Positions 2,388 to 14,855 of a stretch of DNA of 64,000 nucleotides are shown here, piece by piece. The notes under the pieces were generated by a model. It was not told the origin of the DNA. It searched no databases and saw nothing but the letters and a program-made list of their open reading frames with translations. This stretch comes from Raja brachyura (taxonomy: Eukaryota), in NCBI GenBank assembly GCA_963514005.1, contig OY740792.1:16678001-16742000 (forward strand), written 5' to 3'. A program made the translations under genes and the position numbers. Every line of letters starts with the position of its first letter. Position 1 is the first letter of the stretch.

Positions 2388-2676
2388 AGTGCGGAAACAA
2401 ACCCTTCGGCCCACCTAGTCCACACCGACTAGTGATCCCAGAACATGAACACTATCCTACACACATGCACACATTAGGGACAATTTACTTTTATACCACG
2501 CCAATTAACCTACAAACCTGTATGTATTTGGAGTGTGGGAGGAAACTGAAGATCTTGGAGAGAACCCAAGCAGGTTACGGGGAGAAGCTACAAACTACGT
2601 ACAGATCGCACCCGTCTTCAGGATCAAACCCAGGTGTTTAGCGCTGTAAGGCAGTGGCTCTACTGCTATGCCACCA
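2388..2676 (-). mobile_element. HE1-like tRNA-derived SINE
   Basis: Reverse strand has a tRNA-like head (GGTGGCATAGCAGTAGAG...GGGTTTGATCC) and a GGGCCGAAGGG tail; similar to copies at 11897, 39117, 45985 and 54637. Confidence 0.7.
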
Positions 2677-2776
2677 TTATCGTTGTTGGTGTTGTTATTC
2701 ATTGTGCCATTTTCAGTTCACACTACAGCATATATGTGGGCATTTTGCGGGATTACACCCGCATTATTACATGCAT

Positions 2777-4749
2777 GCATTAGCCAGAAAAAGCAGCCAA
2801 CCAGAGGACTGGGAGAAATTCAGAGTCCAGCAGAGGAGGACAAGGGGCTTAATTAGGAAAGGGAAAATAGATTATGAAAGAAAATTGGCAGGGAACATAA
2901 AAACTGACTGCAAAAGTGTTCATAGATATGTGAAGAGAAAGAGATTAGTTAAAACAAATGTAGAGCCCTTGCTGTCAGAAACAGGTGAATTGATCATGGG
3001 GAACAAGGACATGGCAGACCAATTGAATAACTACTTTGGTTCTGTCTTCACTAAGGAAGACATAAATAATCTGCCGGAAATAGCAGGGGACCGGGGGTCA
3101 AATAAGGTGGAGGAACTGAGTGAAATCCAGGTAAGCCGGGAAGTGGTGTTGGGTAAATTGAATGGATTAAAGGCCGATAAATCCCCAGGGCCAGATAGTC
3201 TGCCTCCCAGAGTACTCAAGGAAGTAGCCACAGAAATAGTGGATGCATTAGTGATAATTTTTCAAAACTCTTTAGATTCTGGAGTAGTTCCTGAGGATTG
3301 GAGTGTAGCTAATATAACCCCACTTTTAAAAAAGGGAGGGAGAGAGAAAACGGGGAATTACAGACCAGTTAGTCTAACATCGGCAGTGGGGAAACTGCTA
3401 GAGTCAGTTATTAAAGATGGGATAGCAGTAAATTTGGAAAGTGGTGAAATCATTAGACAAAGTCAGCATGGATTTACGAAAGGTAAATCATGTCTGACAA
3501 ATCTTATAGAATTTTTCGAGGATGTAACTAGCAGAGTGGATAAGGGAGAACCAGTGGATGTGTTATATCTAGACTTTCAGAAGGCTTTGGACAAGGTCCC
3601 ACATAAGAGATTAGTACACAAACTTAAAGCACACGGTATTGGGGGTTCAGTATTGATGTGGATAGAGAACTGGCTGGCAGACAGGAAGCAAAGGGTAGGA
3701 GTAAACGGGTCCTTTTCAGAATGGCAGGCAGTGACTAGTGGGGTACCACAAGGCTCAGTGCTGGGACCCCAGCTATTTACAATATATATTAATGATTTGG
3801 ACGAGGGAATTGAATGCAACATCTCCAAGTTGGTGGATGACACTAAGCTGGGGGGTAGTGTTAGGTGTGAGGTGGATGCTAGGAGGCTGCAAGGTGACTT
3901 GGATAGGCTGGGTGAGTGGGAAAATGCATGGCAGATGCAGTATAATGTGGATAAATGTGAGGTTATCCACTTTGGTGGCAAAAACAGGAGGGTAGACTAT
4001 TATCTGAATGGTGGCAAATTAGCAAAAGGGGAGATGCAACGAGACCTGGGTGTCATGGTACACCAATCATTGAAAGTAGGCATGCAGGTGCAGCAGGCAG
4101 TGAAGAAAGCAAATGGTATGTTCGCATTCATAGCGAAAGGATTTGAGTATAGGAGCAGGGAGGTTCTACTGCAGTTGTACAGGGTTTTGGTGAGACCACA
4201 CCTGGAGTATTGCGTACAGTTTTGGTCTCCAAATCTGAGAAAATATATTCTTGCCATAGAGGGGGTACAGAGAAGGTTCACCAGACTGATTCCTGGGATG
4301 TCAGGACTTTCATATGAGGAAAGACTGAATAGACTTGGCTTATACTCGCTAGAATTTAGAAGACTGAGGGGGGATCTTATAGAAACGTACAAAATTCTTA
4401 AAGGGTTGGAAAGATGCAGGAAGATTGTTCCCGATGTTGGGGAGGTCCAGAACAAGGGGTCACAGTCTAAGGATAAGGGGGATTTCCTTTAGGACCGAGA
4501 TGAGGAAAACGTTTTTCACACAGAGAGTGGTGAGTCTCTGGAATTCTCTGCCACAGAAGGTAGTTGAGGCCAGTTCATTGGCTATATTTAAGAGGGAATT
4601 AGATGTGGCCCTTGTGGCTAAAGGGATCAGGGGGTATGGAGAGAAGGCAGGTACAGGATACTGAGTTGGATGATCAGCCATGATCATATTGAATGGTGGT
4701 GCAGGCTCGAAGGGCCGAATGGCCTACTCCTGCACCTATTTTCTATGTA
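2777..4749 (+). mobile_element. 5'-truncated CR1 LINE, ORF2 reverse transcriptase region (pseudogenised)
   Basis: ORF 2654-4492 carries KSPGPD, NYRPVSLTS, QHGF, GVPQGSVLGP and RPHLEYC. The catalytic FADD reads LVDD; frameshift near 4410; TTCTATGT tail. Confidence 0.95.
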
Positions 4750-5493
4750 CCTTTCACAGATGACCTGACTAAGACGTCTCCCATATTTTCAATTTGTTAA
4801 AAAACATTAAAACTTTAATAAATATGACATTCAATTTAAAGAATTAATGTGCACATGACCGATGAGTTCCTTTTCCATATATTAAGCAGTCCCATTTGTT
4901 CATTAAATATTGCTTCAAACGAGGAGTTTCCTCCCTACTGTAGTGATTTTGCGGTAGGTAGGCATGGAGCCAAAGATTACTGTTTCCAAGATGTGATAAC
5001 AGCAGCACACACTTGCAATGTGCTTAAGTAGGAACAAAATGTAGAGCCCTCTCCGCTCCCCTCCCCCCCCCCCCCCCCCCCCCCCCCCCGCCCCCAAATA
5101 CTCTTGACCATACATGCCTCCCTTTCTGTCCTCTTCTATCTATAAAACAATTTGTAATTCTGCCATTTATTACAAGACATAGATTTAAATCTTAGCAACA
5201 TTACTGGAACATTTTATAGCACTCACATTTTGAACCTAATTCAAACTTATAAATTGATACCAATACTGGAACTGACACAGCTGGCACATGTAATTTCATT
5301 TCGGAATCACGTGAGTGACTTCGTGAAGAACCCGCCAGCACGCATGCGCGACATATCGTCGCAACGCGTTGCTGCCGACGGCTGGCGGTGGAGCGCGCTC
5401 CCGCCAGCCCTTCATAAGGGACCGCTAAGGTAAGTGACACTAACCTTAAGTTGGTTGGTCCTTGTTGAAAGTATTTTTTCTTTCAGCAGGGGC

Positions 5494-7257
5494 ATGGAAG
5501 GGAGTAGCAGAGGCCGTAAGACGTCCGTCCGGAGTCGCCGGCCACCTGTCCCGGAGCCCTCATCATCGGCTGCACCTGTGAGACAGGCCGGGAAGAAGGC
5601 GGGGAAGTCGGTGAGCCCTGTCGCTACAGGGCCCGACCCGCCGATACACCGCAGCTCCGGTGAGGAATTCGAGGAGCAGGACTGCGGTGTGCCATCGGAG
5701 CAGGTAGACCCTGCCTCCGTATCGAGGTCGCCAACGGGCTCGTTGGCCGACCTGGGCAAGGGCTCGCGTGCGGCTGCACAGCCCTTCTCCCTGAGCCCTC
5801 AGAGTAGAGGGAGGGATGGAGCCCGTAAGCCTCACCCTTTAGGGGCAAAGGCGTCACCTGCCGCTAAAATGCGGACAGGTGTTATGGCGGGACTCAAGTC
5901 CACTGGGAGACCTATCAGGACCAGTGTTGACTCCCCAACCATCGATACCGGGAAGAGTCACTTGGGAGGAGTCCCGCCACGGTCACCGAGTCCCCCGTGG
6001 ATGGGAGGACGGGACCGTCCGTCGGCTAGGTCCACGATGTGGGCAGCCGGCAAGCCCGCGCGGGCGTCGGGTCACCGTGCTGAGGCATTGGGTGCCGACT
6101 CTCCACCGCGTTTGCCCTCCGAGGCAGCGGGATCAGGCTCCGCCAAAAGGAGGCGTTTGAGCGCACCTCCCGCGCGGGAATCGCTCAGCTTTGCTGCGGC
6201 GGCTGGAAGCGACAATTTCCGGCACCGGGTTCACCTCGACGAGGTGCGGGCCGATGAACGGAGCCTCAGCAGTGCACCAGAACATGAGGACTCCGACCGC
6301 CCGAGTGTACAGGGCGAAGGGCGTATTGACCGGATGGAGCGGATGTTGGAGCTCCTCTTGCAGAACCAACGGCAGGATGCATCCAGCTCCAGACGGCACA
6401 GGGAGGTTTCGCCATTCTCAACAGGCAGCCTTAGGCAGCCAGAGGAGGAGGATTTGTTATACCATACACCAACTCCATCGGAGGTGCCGCAGGAAGAACT
6501 CCTCGACGTGGCGGCAAAATTTGCTTCTTCGGAGACATCGGGACTACCCCTCAACCCCAAACTTGCTGCCACCGTGGACTTCCTAACTAATCATCAGCTC
6601 CAGGAGGAAGTTCTATCGCAGGCCATCAACAGGCATAAAGCCCCAACCAACTGCAACTCCCTCAACGTGCCCATGGTCAATACGCCGATCTGGGGCAACA
6701 TTGGCACAGTCATCAGGACTCAGGAGATAAAGCTCCAGCGCATCCTGAAGCTGCTTACTGCTGGGATCACCGCGTTCGCGCGGTCGGTGGACGGAGAGGA
6801 CCTAAGCTTGGACCAGGAGGATGCTCTCGCTCTGCTGTGTGCTACTCAGCATGAAATAAATGCCTTCCGGAAGAGTGTCATCCGCCCCACGCTCAACCCA
6901 AAATTCATGGTGTTGTGTAAGGCGCCTCCTACACCACCGCCCAGACAGATGTTCGGGGAAGACCTCCCGAAGAGGGTCAAGGAGCTGGACGAACACGTCA
7001 AAACGGTGGGACTGATGCGGTCTCAGATCGCGCCCAGGCAGGCGGCCAAGAAAGCGCCGTTTTACAGGCCACGAGGCCCTGCCACCAGACCGGCACGTAC
7101 TTACACTCCAGCTCCGCCTCAATACCAGCAGCCCCAGCAGCCGCGGCCTTTTTTAGGGCAAGGCCCGCAGCGGCCTCCGTGGAAGATGCGGACGCCGCAG
7201 CACCAGCCCAACCCAGCACCTCCACGTCCCGCCAAACATGTCAAGGGCCGCCGGTAA
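5494..7257 (+). CDS. DIRS ORF1 gag-like protein
   Basis: Open 587-codon frame from ATG 5494: low-complexity N-terminus, central P.NC..L.VP.VN..IW motif, basic Pro/Gln-rich tail. Confidence 0.85.
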   Translation: MEGSSRGRKTSVRSRRPPVPEPSSSAAPVRQAGKKAGKSVSPVATGPDPPIHRSSGEEFEEQDCGVPSEQVDPASVSRSPTGSLADLGKGSRAAAQPFSLSPQSRGRDGARKPHPLGAKASPAAKMRTGVMAGLKSTGRPIRTSVDSPTIDTGKSHLGGVPPRSPSPPWMGGRDRPSARSTMWAAGKPARASGHRAEALGADSPPRLPSEAAGSGSAKRRRLSAPPARESLSFAAAAGSDNFRHRVHLDEVRADERSLSSAPEHEDSDRPSVQGEGRIDRMERMLELLLQNQRQDASSSRRHREVSPFSTGSLRQPEEEDLLYHTPTPSEVPQEELLDVAAKFASSETSGLPLNPKLAATVDFLTNHQLQEEVLSQAINRHKAPTNCNSLNVPMVNTPIWGNIGTVIRTQEIKLQRILKLLTAGITAFARSVDGEDLSLDQEDALALLCATQHEINAFRKSVIRPTLNPKFMVLCKAPPTPPPRQMFGEDLPKRVKELDEHVKTVGLMRSQIAPRQAAKKAPFYRPRGPATRPARTYTPAPPQYQQPQQPRPFLGQGPQRPPWKMRTPQHQPNPAPPRPAKHVKGRR

Positions 7258-7259
7258 CC

Positions 7260-9189
7260 ATGGAGGTAAGGCGGTCTGGTTTTCATGCACCTGGGTGCTT
7301 AACTTCACATGTTGGTGGGCGACTACGGTTCTTCACGGGGGCATGGGAAACTATCACTTCAGATGAGTTTGTCTTACAAAGTATTCAGGGCCATGAGATT
7401 GAATTCATTAATGGTAACATCCCTCCATCCCAGCATATGCCCGATCGGAAATTTACGCTGTCTAGCATTGAAAAGGCAGCAGGCTATGCTGAGATCTTAA
7501 GGTTACAAGAAAAAGGAGTGATAGAAAAAACTATACACGAACCAATTGAATTCGTATCCAACATATTCACCAGGCCCAAGAAGGATGGAGGATGTCGGGT
7601 TATTATTGATCTGACCCATTTGAATACCTTTGTAACATATACCCATTTCAAAATGGACACGTTCGAAACAGCCAAGTCATTGATTTCTCATGGCTGCTTT
7701 ATGGCATGCATTGATTTAAAAGATGCGTACTATTCTGTATCCATTCGGAAACACCATAGGAAGTTCTTAAAATTCATCTGGATGGATCAGCTATGGCAAT
7801 ACAGGGCTTTGCCAAATGGGCTTACCACAGCCCCTAGATTATTTACTAAATTACTCAAACCTATTCTGGCCACGCTACGGAAACAACATCATATAGTGAT
7901 GGCCTATTTGGATGATATCTTGATTGTTGGCAACACCCTGGAAGCAGCTGAACTGGCAGTTTCAGCCACTGTGGCAATTTTTCAGCAAATGGGGTTCATT
8001 ATCCATCCAGATAAATCAAAGTTCTGCCCTTCACAGGTCATGGATTATCTGGGGTTCACGGTGGATTCCAATCGCATGAGGGCCACCATACCAGCTAACG
8101 AAGTTGGGGATGTCACCCAAGTATGTGAGGATTTGGTCTGGGCCAGTATACCATCAATTAGACAAACTGCTAAGGTGCTTGGCAAGATAGGAGCACTTTT
8201 TCCAGCGGCTCGATACGGGCCTTTGCATTATCAAAATTTGCAAAGAGCCAAGATCTCAGCATTAAAACAAAACGCTGGACATTTTGACAGACCAATGCAG
8301 CTGTCTCTTAAAGCTAAGATTGAGTTACAATGGTGGGTAGACAATATTAGTAACTCATTTAAACCCATCATTGTGCCCAATCCGATGGTATATACTTACA
8401 AACCGATGCAAGCTCCCATGGCTGGGGAGCTACGGACAACTATTCTAGTTGCGGGGGCAGATGGGACAACCTTGAATCTACTCTGTTATTGACACAAGGG
8501 ATAAACTATTTGGAGTTGCTTGGTGCATTTCACGGACTTCGAGCTTATTGTTCTAATCTTACTGACGCTCATGTCCGTCTCCAAATAGACAATACCACTG
8601 TGGTGGCATATTTAAACCATATGGGCGGTACCAGGTCAATTTCATGTGATGAATTGGCGAATACAATTTGGCTCTGGTGTATTCAACGGAATATTTGGAT
8701 TTCAGCTACCTATTCACCAGGTGAGCTCAATACTGTGGTGGACACCAGGTCACGCAAGTTCAATGACAACATCGAGTGGATGTTGCATCCTCAAATCTTC
8801 ACTAAAGTTACAGCCAAATTTGGTAAACCGGATATCAACCTCTTTGCGTCGTGGTTGAACCATCAGGTACCAACATACGTTTCGTGGGAACCAGTCCTGG
8901 GGCAATGGCGATGGATGCATTCTCGCTGGACTGGGGGAAATGGTTCTTCTATGCATTTCCTCCATTTTGCCTCATCAGTCGGGTATTGCAGAAAATCCAG
9001 ATGGATGCTGCCAAGGGCATTCTTATCATACCCGACTGGCCTACGCAGCCATGGTATCCGGTGGTCTTTGAGATGATCAGTCAACCTTGGGTCCTCTTAG
9101 AGGGTTGCCCACAATTGGTCACTAACCCTGTGTCAGGGGAACCACATCCCTGCCACAGCTATCTAAACTTGTTGGCTTGCAGGTTCTGA
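7260..9189 (+). pseudogene. DIRS pol (RT, RNase H, adenine-methyltransferase-like domain), two frameshifts
   Basis: IDLKDAYYSV, LPNGL, YLDD; LQTDASSHGWG and INYLEL in a shifted frame after ~8390; DAFSLDW..FYAFPPF and PDWPTQPWYP after a second shift at ~8895. Confidence 0.92.
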
Positions 9190-10166
9190 ACAGGCCATTA
9201 CTGCGGTATGGCCTATCACCCAGAACAATGGATACCATCGGAGCGTCATGCCAGGAGTCCACCAGGCGGCAATACCTCTCCCACATCCGGAAATGGGAAA
9301 CCTACTGCGGCCGCTCCCAAATTACATATGACGCTGCAACCATAGCCGACGTATTGGAATTCCTGGCGGGGTTGCACCATGGTGAACACTTGAGCTACAG
9401 TGCCATCAACAGCGCCAGAAGCGCGCTGTCATTCTACCTCAATATTGAGGTAGGATCCAACAGGCTGGTGTCCAGGCTCATGCGGGGAATATTCAATTCG
9501 AATCCGCCCAGACCACGCTATAATATCACCTGGGATATCGGGAAAGTACTAACCCTGCTCAGGACGTGGTCGCCCATGGAGGGGCTAGAGCTGGACAAAC
9601 TCACCATGAAGCTGGTGATGTTACTAGCACTGACTTCAGCGCAGAGGGTACAGACACTCCATAAAATCCGGATCGACAGGATGATCTCTACCCCTGCAGA
9701 AGTAGTCTTCTTTATAGATGAGCTACTCAAGCAGCATAGACCTGGGTTCACAGGGCTGCAGCTGAAGTTCCCGGCATACCCCGCAGATGCAAGGCTATGT
9801 TTAGCTGCCCGTATCCGTCACTATGTCAAAGTGACGAGAAACCTAAGGGGAATGGAGAAATACCTGCTTGTCACTCACAAGAAACCTCACCATCGAGTGA
9901 CAGTCCAGACGATATCCAGGTGGCTCAGGATCGTCTTGGGTAAGTCAGGTATCGACACTAATGTCTTCAAATCCCATTCCACCAGGGCTGCATCAACGTC
10001 GGCGGTGAGGGTCATGGAGGTGCCCATGGACCATATTCTCGCCACAGCAGGATGGGCGAATGAAGCCATCTTTCAGCGGTTTTATAACAAGCCTGTTGCC
10101 GCTCCTCTACAGTTCGCGGAGGCCGTGCTGAATGCAGATCAAGAACGTAGAGATGTCCCCGAATGA
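9183..10166 (+). CDS. DIRS tyrosine recombinase
   Basis: Open frame with SAQRVQTL, HSTR, GW and FQRFY motifs; true start uncertain (see findings). Confidence 0.92.
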   Translation, partial: VLNRPLLRYGLSPRTMDTIGASCQESTRRQYLSHIRKWETYCGRSQITYDAATIADVLEFLAGLHHGEHLSYSAINSARSALSFYLNIEVGSNRLVSRLMRGIFNSNPPRPRYNITWDIGKVLTLLRTWSPMEGLELDKLTMKLVMLLALTSAQRVQTLHKIRIDRMISTPAEVVFFIDELLKQHRPGFTGLQLKFPAYPADARLCLAARIRHYVKVTRNLRGMEKYLLVTHKKPHHRVTVQTISRWLRIVLGKSGIDTNVFKSHSTRAASTSAVRVMEVPMDHILATAGWANEAIFQRFYNKPVAAPLQFAEAVLNADQERRDVPE

Positions 10167-10312
10167 GGGGTTTTTGTTTTGATTGTTAATAAATATTATT
10201 CTTGTTTTTCAGTACAAGCAGTCTGGAAAGTTGTTTACTCCCATCCATCCTTAAACAGTGGTGTGTCAGCATGGACGTGGTCCAGGGCGTGAAATCACAG
10301 AGCTTTGAAGTC

Positions 10313-10423
10313 TTCACGAAGTCACTCACGTGACTCCGAAATGAAATAGTAAGATTAAACGAGAACTTACCAGTTCGAAGGTTGATCTTTATTTTATGAG
10401 GAGTTGCGATGAGGGATTTCGTG
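10313..10423. repeat. DIRS internal complementary region (ICR)
   Basis: 10313-10347 is the reverse complement of the left end 5293-5328 (1 mismatch); 10347-10423 is the reverse complement of the right end 10567-10643 (1 mismatch). Confidence 0.95.
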
Positions 10424-11632
10424 CCCTCCGCTCCCAACCCTCGATCATAATCAACTGGTAATTAGAGTCTCTTCAATCTTACTATGCCAAGTCATTTCTC
10501 TGTGTTGTTCTGTGATTCCACACCGCTACTTTGAAGAATGTCGCGCATGCGTGCTGGCGGGTTCTTCACGAAATCCCTCATCGCAACTCCTCATAAAATA
10601 AAGATCAACCTTCGAACTGGTAAGTTCTCATTTAATCTTACTAGTTTATATCATTGCAGGAGTTAAGAATTTAAATCTTTCTTCCATTTATGCAGACCCT
10701 TTAAAAGTCAAAACAGCTCACAGACACTTAGCATTATTGACTAATGCAGTAACAATTGCACTGACAGGGAGTAGTTTTTATGGTGTCAATGAACAAAAAA
10801 GCTTCAAGATTAAGAATTGTGTAAAATGAATAATGCAATCTGATGGATATAGACAAAAGCCAATGAACTCCATGGTAATGGAATTTAACTGAGATATGAA
10901 AGTGCAAAAGAACTAAAAGTGCCAAAACTCACAAGTTGTCATTGAAATTAAGTTTAAAAAGTTGCATTTTGTTTTTAAATCTCTAAAAGTTAACATAAAT
11001 ATTGAGCGTGCATTGATATCTTTGCATACAGTAGCAGATTCAGTTGTGTTTCTAGTCATTGCTAAGGAAGCTGATGGAAAGGGACTTGACATTAGTACTG
11101 CTACATATCAAAGGTACACATCCCTGATGTGCCATAAAGGTGCCATGAGTATTGAGAGTAATCTAGCTACACATTCAAAAATTGATTCATAGAGACATGC
11201 AGCATTGATGCAGGCCCTTCAGTCCAAATCGGTCATGCCAACCAAGTTGACTCTAATGTTTTACACTATTTACATTTGGCCGTATTTGGCCCATATCCCT
11301 CTAAATCATTCCTATCCATGTATAAATGTCCTTCTCTGTCCAAATATATTTTCAATGTTTTACTTGCAACTCTACCACCTTCTCTGGCAACTTGTTCCAT
11401 CACCCTCTGTATGAAAGATTTGTCCATCAAGTCCCTTTTAAATCTTTCCCCCCCACCTTATATTCCTCCACAATAACACTGGAGCAGGACCCTAATAAAT
11501 ATTTATTGAAGCCCTGAGTGCACTCCACTGTACCATTGCACACATGTCAGAAAATAGCTGCCCTCCACCCAATTCTTCCACTAACTTATATGGACAGGTG
11601 TAGCATCTCCTCCTCCAATTCCCCATGCTGTT

Positions 11633-11732
11633 AGTCTGAAGAAGGATTTTGACGCGAAACGTTACCTATTCCTTTTCTCCAGAGATGCTGTCTGTTCCGC
11701 TGAGTTATTCCAGCTTTTTGTGTCTATCTTCA
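11633..11732 (+). mobile_element. Penelope-derived short repeat with hammerhead-like core
   Basis: CTGAAGAAGG...CGAAACGTT followed by GATGCTG...GCTGAGTTATTCCAGC, shared with many copies in the window. Confidence 0.6.
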
Positions 11733-11896
11733 GAGATTTCTTTAGATTTTATTTGCTACTGACCATAAAATATAAATTTTATTCAAAGACCATTAATCAA
11801 ATGAAATTAAGACTTATCTCCATACATCAAAATGGTTTTATCTCCATGGAAAACAACTTTGTGGAAATGGGTCTATTTTTCTGCTAGATATATTTC

Positions 11897-12192
11897 AGTT
11901 TAGTTTTAAGATAGAGCATGGAAACAGGCCCTTTGGTCCACCGAGTCGGCGCCGACCATCAATCACCTGTACACTAGTTCCATCTTACACACTAGGGATA
12001 ATTTACAGAAGCCAATTAACTTACAATCCTGCACATCTTTGGAATGAGAAAGGAAACAGGAGCACGCAGAGAAAACCCACGTGGTCCAGGGAGAATGTAT
12101 AAACTCCAAATAGACAGCACCCATTGTCAGGATCAAACCCATAGCTCTGGTGCTGCAAGGCAGCAACTCTACCATTGGACCATTGAGCCGCC
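11897..12192 (-). mobile_element. HE1-like SINE
   Basis: tRNA-like head, conserved body, GGGCCTGTTTCC tail and (AACTA)-type end on the reverse strand. Confidence 0.75.
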
Positions 12193-14855
12193 CTTCATAC
12201 ATCCAGAAGTACAAAATATAGTGAGACAGGACCAGTGATATGACTAGTGCCAGTGATATTACATTAATGTTCTTTAACCTGCAGTGCAGGAATTGGGTGG
12301 AGGGCAATTATTTTCTGAATTTAGCAATGAAACAGAGTGCATTCAGGGCTTTCGGAAAAATTTATTACGTTCCTGCTCCAGCGGTATTGCGATGGAATGT
12401 AATATCCACTAAAGCCATTTCTTTTGAAGTAGAGACTTAATTGTCATGGCATGAATGAGAACAGAATGTGAATGCAATCCTTTTGTTCCCAAATCTACAG
12501 AAGGCATGACACCAATGTTTAATCAAAGATTTGCAACAAAGAAATTGAAATATTTGGCCCTGTGCACTGAGAGCCCCTGAAGCAGTGACTGTCTAGCTAG
12601 AAAAAATATAGTTATTTAATGACATGAATGCAGCCCTTTGACAATGTCAAATTCTATTTGTTGGGCCAATAAAAATAAACTTATAATGCCCAGTTCATAT
12701 TATAAAGCCACAAAAATGCTTTTTTTTTAGATTAAAGCAGAAAGTTTTGAATTGTTTGAAAGATTTTAATAGAATACTAGGTGAAATATTGTTTTCATTG
12801 TTCAACAAATCAATAAAAAGGTAAGACCAATTCTCATTAACCAAATTGGAAAAGTTGCTATTGCTCAGATGATCATTGTGTGCATTTCAATTATTTTGCA
12901 GCTAATCTGCCACCACGTCAAATTTTGTGATGATTTATAGAATGAGTCAGTTGGCAGTCTGATGGGGGGGTGGTGTAGAATGAGCTTTAATCGAGGGACT
13001 AATTAGCGTAAAAGCAGCCCACTTTAATTTTCCGCTCCTGTTGACCTCACTATCACTTAGTTCTTTTGGTATGAGTTCTGCCTTTCAAACAGTAAAACGA
13101 ATTGGTAAATTGGAATGAAGTGTATCCAGCTGTGCAAACGATTTATCAATTCCACCAGCACAAGCACTATGATTTGATTGGTAATTTTCTGTGGTTTAAA
13201 TTTTACGATTGTATGTACGTATCTGTTTTTGTTTACTTTTACAAGAATTATCGATTATCACTGGAGATCACTCTTATCCAAAAAACAATATTCTTTAAAC
13301 CGAACATAAAGGACACTATATAGACAGGCCAGTTAATATTTGCTGAGTTTTGAGAACATGAAAAATATCACCCATTTCATCACTTGAGGAGAAAAACATT
13401 AACACAAACAATAAAGCAGATGCATACTCTATTGAGTAAATGACTGAACCACAAAATGGCTAGGCTTTTTAGTATGTTCCTATATTGCTGTGTTTCTTTA
13501 AAATAGTATGTTGTTATATCTTGGGGAAGTATGCAGAAATCCTTACTCACCAATCAGAATATTACTATTATCTCTAATAATTTTTTTTAAAATCTTCCTT
13601 TGGAATATAGAATGGAACGACATAACTGCAAGTAATTCACAAAGTAACTGCAACATTGGGAAGCTCCATGCACCACAGAAAGCAAGGGTGAAGTTGTAAG
13701 ACAAGTCATCTCTGGCATCCCCTACTATGAACATTAAACTCTGGCATTCTCTCAGCTGGGCAATATTGTACATCATTAGAATCTAGAAAGGATGTGGAAA
13801 AACATTGAAAGTTCTGCAAAAAGCAACACAAAATGAAATTCAGAGTAAAATATTAGAACTCCAAATAAAATGGAATATTCAAAGACATAAAAAGGGCGCT
13901 GAGAATACTTTGACTGTTCCCATACTGATGTAGACTGAGAAAATGTCTGAAGCCACAAGGCCAAAGTCAAACTTAGCTGGCCACTTTGGGAAATAATGTA
14001 ATACTATGATCCTGACATTAAACAAGAAAATAACACCAGTTAACCTTTATGAACCAGGTGTCCTAAAGTACAGTGAATCTAAACATTATTCCCTCTAAAC
14101 GTTATCCCCTTATCATGTATCTAGACACTGTAAATGGATTGATTATAATCATATATTGTCTTTGTGTTGACTGGTTAGTGCGCAACAAAAAGCTTTTCAC
14201 TGTATCTCGGTACACGTGACAATAAACTAAACTGAACTGAATTGATCTGAGGTTGGCATCACCAGCTCAAATTTGGTTGAATGAAAACTTATTTTCTCCC
14301 ACCTCTTAAGTTGGAGGAAAATTGTATCCACTGCGTTCTACTTGGGGTTGTTTCACTAATAATTTCATTGTCCTTTTATAAATTATACATATTTCTTCAT
14401 GAAAGATGTTGACTTCGCTGTGCGGTTTAATTACTTTAAAATAAAATATTTAATCTTGAATACTGGAAACTTGGTTATTTGCATTACCACAACAAATGGC
14501 ATAGGCTGGGCTCTTAATTGATTGCCTGTAAAAGCTCACCCGGATTCAATGGAATTGAAAGTCCCAGTAGTTAAAATCCGAGTCAATTAACCTCTGTGAA
14601 ATAATTGATCCCATTCAAATGTTAGTTAATTAGCAAATACTCTCGGAACATTTCAGAAGCTGCCAAAGAGAATAGCCACAGCTCGTATGACCTTTCTCGT
14701 CCTTTTGAGGGCACAAAGGAACGATTTTCCTTGGCAATCACTGTGGAAGTCCACCCTGTTAAGTCCCCTTGATATGGGGAAATTCTATCCCTTACAAAAA
14801 TTCAAATAGTTTGGGTAAATCGATCAGAATTTTACCATAACTATTTTCTATTTGA

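Follow-up and report, generated by a model that had tools for sequence, protein, structure and literature searches.

Pol as a probable optional intron and a predicted −1 frameshift at the end of gag in a DIRS1-like retrotransposon of Raja brachyura

The element and its candidate splice signals

We analysed a 64,000-nucleotide (nt) stretch of the Raja brachyura genome (contig OY740792.1 of assembly GCA_963514005.1, positions 16,678,001 to 16,742,000), here called the window, in which positions 5293–10652 are a DIRS1-like retrotransposon of a young family; all features described below lie on the forward strand. The family has 4033 candidate stretches in the 2.7-Gb genome, with 96–99% identity among the 40 of these candidates that were scored, the window copy itself excepted. 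Comparison of inverted repeats within the window places the left inverted terminal repeat at 5293–5354, the internal complementary region (ICR) at 10311–10423 and the right inverted terminal repeat at 10538–10652, with positions 5293–5329 complementary to the ICR and 5312–5354 to the right terminus. Inverted termini with an ICR complementary to both outer ends are characteristic of DIRS1-like elements, as is a tyrosine recombinase (YR) open reading frame (ORF) in place of a DDE integrase. No relative was found among viral contigs.

The gag ORF (5494–7257, 587 amino acids) is uninterrupted in the window copy; a Pfam search gave no match for it, and with 33–40% identity to the gag parts of echinoderm DIRS proteins it is a gag-like first ORF. 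The pol ORF (7260–9189), which comprises reverse transcriptase (RT), RNase H (RH) and methyltransferase (MT) regions, has 642 codons in intact natural copies and is open over 641–642 codons in 5 of 20 close copies. In the window copy it is disrupted, the frame from ATG 7260 stopping at 410 codons, with RH and MT in other frames. Pfam recognised the RT (RVT_1, E = 2e-22) and gave no match to RH or MT in these broken frames. Both were assigned from the motifs LQTDAS, DNTT and AFPPF, which we take to mark these regions, together with the 52–58% identity of pol to echinoderm DIRS pol. The YR frame spans 9126–10166, with Pfam matches to Phage_integrase and Phage_int_SAM on 9126–10163; the portion that would form the YR exon (9183–10166, 327 codons, phase 0) is open in the window copy and has its first own Met at 9228.

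An earlier note on this DNA had proposed that a single transcript is spliced from a leader donor (D1) either to an acceptor before gag (A1) or, removing gag, to one before pol (A2), and that a second splice (D2–A3) joins the first two pol codons to the YR. All five motifs are present, as GT at 5430 (D1), AG at 5486 (A1), AG at 7156 (A2), GT at 7266 (D2) and AG at 9182 (A3), and A1 has a second AG of NAGNAG type at 5489 (A1b). D2 and A3 would delimit an optional GT-AG intron at 7266–9182 (1917 nt long in the window copy and about 1916 nt in intact ones) that holds RT, RH and MT. D2 follows ATG GAG, the ATG (7260–7262) lying in the pol frame two nt past the gag stop and being ACG in one sister subfamily. 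Joining D2 to A3 yields a 329-amino-acid ORF that begins MEVLNRPLL and is in frame with the YR, whose first in-frame Met at 9228 is indeed preceded by an out-of-frame ATG at 9208.

We ranked these sites with a simple weight matrix made from approximate U2 frequencies. Among 263 GT sites of the element D1 comes first and D2 fourth, and among 341 AG sites A1b, A1, A3 and A2 rank first, second, sixth and 15th. The second-ranked donor-like site, CTG/GTAAGT at 10620 near the right end, is complementary to a portion of the ICR. Of 20 close copies, 17 retain the dinucleotide at D1 (the other three lack the region), 18 at A1, 20 at A2 and 19 each at D2 and A3, and the signal columns vary by 1.1% against 1.5–2.6% elsewhere, figures that carry little weight because the copies are 96–98% identical. 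The D2–A3 pair conforms to the U2-type GT-AG consensus, and its exact loss is seen in genomic copies.

Genomic copies that lack pol and the conservation of their junction

Three genomic loci carry the exact D2–A3 junction pattern, with both termini present and precisely 7266–9182 missing. With up to three mismatches the pattern occurs at 106 loci, the reversed-pattern control giving none; 93 of the 100 junction loci listed read ATG AAG/GTT, and the matching unspliced donor, AAG/GTAAG, is present at 1539 loci. At all 30 loci checked the end of gag is joined to the YR exactly here, with 7266–9182 gone, and 20 of 20 longer stretches pass from gag into the YR at the same point. The pol-less copies finish in a DIRS terminus and lack a poly(A) tail (16 of 16 shown). 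They also keep the D1–A1 segment (21 of 21 readable copies, from 24 fetched), so the RNA that was copied would have been spliced at D2–A3 only. Their number is no measure of a rate, since they were picked by junction search.

These copies arose in at least three subfamilies, as flank trees force at least three changes, and the hypothesis of a single pol-less clade fails on either flank (p-AU 7e-42 and 4e-38, on 26 of the retrieved rows). Trees of a larger set, from which loci L093 and L139 were omitted, point the same way. In the third subfamily, represented by locus L088, both flanks are 96–99% identical to those of unspliced relatives and carry the private letters of these relatives beside the junction. 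Other deletions of at least 100 nt amount to five singletons, each located elsewhere.

Furthermore, we compared 80 metagenome loci and relatives from the same genome, which together form 49 clusters. A usable pol start was available in 24 of them, four had no locatable FPPF motif, and the stretch retrieved for L139 contains no YR. In 20 of the 24 clusters the highest-scoring donor at the start of pol is in phase 0. The score of this best donor is at least 8 bits in 15 of the 24, a level reached in 15 of 322 control windows, where the phases are even. An AG at the A3 position itself is present in only 13 of 45 clusters. Where it is present the YR frame is closed just upstream, and where it is absent the frame stays open for some 70–90 codons further upstream (p = 4e-4, a value that, like the other p-values for the clusters, overstates independence because the clusters are related). 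The extended frame reaches an in-frame AG at a Ser or Arg codon that follows the MT motif FPPF, and an in-frame AG at one or other of these two positions occurs in 34 of 41 clusters. The Ser after PPF is coded AGY in 23 of 26 cases, compared with 154 of 598 Ser codons elsewhere in pol. In the window copy the motif reads YAFPPF-C (8950–8970), and the upstream acceptor, for which many relatives have a Ser AGY as the next codon, is absent.

Some relatives depart from the window copy in their pol starts. One subfamily (L152–L154 and L088) has ACG at the place of the pol ATG and the donor GAG/GTGAGG, with an open 642-codon pol in L152. In a sister family gag and pol share a single frame of 776 codons. 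A distant DIRS family (L157, at G000 C15:38545400-38552700, and others; 57% amino acid identity) has gag and pol in one frame, keeps a PFLG motif without the T run and carries a weak phase-0 donor and an A3-type acceptor.

Taken together, the recurrent exact-junction copies and the conservation in distant families strongly support the second, phase-0 splice that removes pol. From the exactness of the pol-less copies it follows that the YR is very likely made by splicing pol out, and we regard splicing as the highly probable origin of the D2–A3 junction.

The end of gag and the leader

The AG that the earlier note read as acceptor A2 is part of a predicted −1 frameshift heptamer, TTTTTTA(G), at 7149–7156, read as F-L in gag and as F-F-R in the pol frame. 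Its geometry is that of X XXY YYZ in the upstream frame, and the −1 frame runs uninterrupted into pol along a 39-codon transframe stretch (7149–7265, FFRARP...PVTME) that overlaps the 3' end of gag and is open in 38 of 40 full-length copies. A TTTTTTA in register with pol is found in 14 of 23 clusters and in none of 154 control windows (L160 was omitted from this count), and a looser definition of the heptamer gives 19 of 23 clusters against 41 of 110 controls. Other families carry AAAAAAC or GGGTTTT at this place, of which AAAAAAC cannot serve as an acceptor. In 17 of 18 clusters the +1 frame meets a stop 8–44 nt ahead of the donor, in 15 of 18 it is the long upstream ORF, and no Met lies between the slippery site and the donor in 17 of 19 relatives. 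In addition, the RefSeq models of the echinoderms Diadema and Amphiura, taken as predicted models, read FFR, the transframe, E joined to V or I, and the YR.

In five pol-less copies gag, transframe and YR form a single ORF of up to 730 amino acids, the length found in L090. The five are L090–L092, L096 and L097 (G000 C16, C11, C1, C2 and C3), and it is a shortened T run that brings the three parts into one frame. A comparable arrangement is seen in an invertebrate-type DIRS element on contig ERZ1738538.4655 (L171), where most of pol is gone and gag with AAAAAAC, the transframe, about 60 pol residues and the YR share one frame; the junction here lies further into pol. In another branch of the pol-less lineage of about 100 copies the YR ends at about 232 codons, and the pol-less copies L054–L056 and L091–L107 have a 5' region of gag that is longer by about 1.5 kb and contains tandem repeats of about 92 nt and 280 nt.

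The heptamer, the transframe, the one-ORF copies and the echinoderm models therefore make a Gag–transframe–YR fusion the most likely form of the YR. To judge from its sequence, the predicted slippery site explains A2 at least as well as an acceptor does, and we consider frameshifting the probable mode of entry, in preference to initiation at ATG 7260.

The strongest alternative is a double splice, in which D1–A2 removes gag and D2–A3 removes pol, and both pol and YR start at a pol-frame ATG (7260, or an ATG soon after A2 elsewhere), either alone or alongside the frameshift. The candidate frameshift stimulator is weak, at z −1.4 to −2.6 in the window and below −2.5 in 4 of 18 relatives, and the downstream hairpin, at a place where a stimulatory structure 5–9 nt away would be expected, has only 4 bp and shows a single compensatory pair among 11 sequences. 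No other donor of the element scores higher than D1, and 12 of the 14 distant TTTTTTA sites are followed by G and thus end in AG, so that they can be read as acceptors too. Copies with an eroded T run still have the A2 AG and the 109-nt distance from A2 to D2. Finally, ATG 7260 stands in good Kozak context (ACCATGG), and the AAG subfamilies have an extra pol-frame ATG shortly after A2. For these reasons (the weak stimulator, the acceptor-like sites, the constant 109 nt and the well-placed pol-frame ATGs) we give the double splice some room, although it seems to us rather unlikely. No genomic copy attests the D1–A2 junction, which gave no matches in one search and three in another, all unrelated; this lack weighs little, because such RNA may not be copied. 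However, A2 holds only its 15th place among the AG sites, and ATGs at 7186 and 7238 precede ATG 7260, as the earlier note had itself cautioned. The idea that the YR borrows the pol ATG fails as a general mechanism, given that ACG takes its place in a subfamily whose 642-codon pol is open and that in most relatives no Met precedes the donor.

In the leader, the candidate intron D1–A1 (5430–5486, with 5489 as an alternative AG) lies in non-coding sequence just before the gag ATG and, as the earlier note had warned, is only 57 nt long. In 46 copies, from subfamilies with differing interiors, it recurs as a GT-AG unit of 56–63 nt that ends 4–7 nt before the gag start. The proposed splice for gag is in this respect kept across the subfamilies of this genome, but most invertebrate relatives show no evident counterpart, and only 2 of 11 invertebrate elements have a strong donor. 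No D1–A1-spliced genomic copy was found in a search that covered the A1 of the window subfamily only and gave a single unrelated match. We conclude that this lineage probably has a genuine leader intron in D1–A1. A candidate upstream ORF at ATG 5344, which in the window copy is in frame with gag after D1–A1 and with pol after D1–A2, was rejected, its phase at D1 being 0 in 30, 2 in 11 and 1 in 5 of the 46 copies. The left terminus (5308–5350) contains CACGTG and GCATGCGC, which resemble E-box and NRF1 promoter sites; GCATGCG is also found upstream of gag in L170.

Just upstream of the element, 2642–4750 holds a 616-codon RT-like ORF and a 3' end, apparently from a CR1/L2-type long interspersed element to judge by its motifs. 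Downstream, 11458–12402 contains inverted repeats of 68 and 36 nt, nested and separated by about 700–800 nt, which are possibly two opposite copies of a short interspersed element or a small DNA element.

An expression model and its relation to known systems

We propose a model in which the whole pol region (7266–9182) is an optional intron, and in which both pol and YR would be reached from gag through a −1 frameshift at UUUUUUA (7149–7155). Unspliced RNA would then give Gag and Gag–transframe–Pol, and RNA spliced at D2–A3 would give Gag and Gag–transframe–YR. The spliced RNA may in turn be reverse-transcribed in trans and integrated, producing the pol-less genomic copies; reverse transcription in trans is suggested because these copies retain both termini and the ICR. 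We put the probability of this combined model at roughly 0.6. With slightly less assurance, we suggest that animal DIRS1-like elements may share one plan. A frameshift-fed transframe linker would be joined to pol or, after splicing, to the YR, which is thus delivered as a Gag–YR fusion. The acceptor would have shifted between two sites in the MT region, and spliced RNA would repeatedly have founded non-autonomous Gag–YR lineages. Of the earlier proposal, D2–A3 is retained in this model, and the D1–A2 splice and the borrowed ATG as a general mechanism are set aside.

Several observations weigh against this account. AGGT microhomology is common to all junctions seen, D2 and A3 being alike in 6 of 7 nt, and subfamilies with a shorter homology yielded no junction copy. 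No pol-less copy turned up in the subfamilies with a CAG/GAT acceptor, where the search gave one locus belonging to the main pol-less clade, and no junction copy in a distant single-ORF family, where one unrelated match was returned. No predicted junction was among the 15 joints listed of 53 in contigs of runs X1, X2, X4 and X5, none of which is recorded as RNA, nor among the 15 listed of 17 in run X1 alone, which is from another organism and of guessed RNA status; these contigs speak neither for nor against splicing. In addition, 7 of 41 clusters show neither acceptor. The pol-less copies might instead stem from RT template switching or from DNA deletion at AGGT, the splice-like motifs being by-products of protein constraint and the YR being made in some other way. 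Such a switch could account for any one event taken singly. As a general explanation, however, we find it highly improbable, as it would have hit the same nucleotide in at least three independent subfamilies when 1769 alternative microhomology pairs of at least 4 nt were available, and would not account for the donor consensus, the phase and the synonymous choice of AGY conserved in distant families. Translation of the YR from unspliced RNA, via Met 9228 or via a second frameshift in the pol/YR overlap such as Poulter and Butler 2015 suggested for Ngaro (as quoted in a passage of PMC13003380), is highly improbable, because although that in-frame Met exists, the 15 codons before it are conserved in the YR frame through synonymous changes, the out-of-frame ATG at 9208 precedes it, and the YR frame of several families closes 0–8 codons upstream of the AG, which leaves little room for a frameshift.

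For DIRS1-like elements, passages of PMC3266345, PMC9210276 and PMC7192593 describe, as here, ORFs for gag, for pol with RT, RH and MT and for YR, inverted termini together with a two-part ICR, a variable pol/YR overlap and RT action in trans, but give no mechanism for the expression of pol and YR; the string 'splic' does not occur in PMC3266345 or PMC9210276. PMC7192593 shows that the RT of DIRS-1 can work in trans and that a marker RNA, once spliced, is copied and inserted into the genome, and the route proposed for the pol-less copies is therefore plausible. The earlier note took it as established that Dictyostelium DIRS-1 splices out gag, a precedent that we did not find; the splicing described in the passages of PMC7192593 and PMC5633606 concerns an engineered marker intron. 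Neither natural splicing nor a gag–pol frameshift of DIRS1-like elements is described in the parts covered of these two papers or of PMC3266345, PMC9210276, PMC6681497, PMC4157794, PMC9341512, PMC13003380, PMC4495291 and bioRxiv 10.64898/2026.05.21.726589. A literature search likewise found neither, its scope ending short of Poulter and Butler 2015, the papers of Goodwin and Poulter, Repbase notes and supplements, which may mention either.

Within the parts of the literature covered, the expression of the second and third DIRS ORFs is left unexplained, and exact coordinates can now be offered for it. The integrated pol-less copies would be a natural record of a splice on the very RNA that gets copied. 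If the model is correct, YR ORF starts are often misannotated, Gag probably serves as a tether for the recombinase, and long and short pol/YR overlaps reflect the position of the acceptor; the two acceptor positions may thus explain the long overlap in about half of DIRS elements.

A further parallel is HIV-1, in which gag–pol expression uses a −1 frameshift at U UUU UUA with an FFR transframe start, and env is expressed by splicing. Heptamer and geometry are the same, and in the model, as in HIV-1, the removal of pol by splicing gives access to the third gene. In contrast to HIV-1, gag stays in the spliced DIRS RNA, the third ORF is a recombinase that would be fused to Gag, the element has no env or protease, and a strong stimulatory hairpin was not found.

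Spliced retroelement RNAs are also known from spliced, integrated and retrotransposed L1 elements (PMC5860796) and from spliced Ty1/copia gag RNA (PMC5580714), and those of L1 reportedly leave genomic copies. The DIRS pol-less copies differ in that they finish in DIRS termini and have no poly(A), and one lineage has been amplified to about 100 copies. Ngaro elements are likewise YR retrotransposons whose YR ORF overlaps the end of pol, but they have split direct repeats instead of inverted termini and an ICR, and a frameshift was proposed for the translation of their YR (quoted in a passage of PMC13003380). Set beside these systems, the Raja brachyura element belongs to a known class and apparently follows a so far undescribed expression plan.

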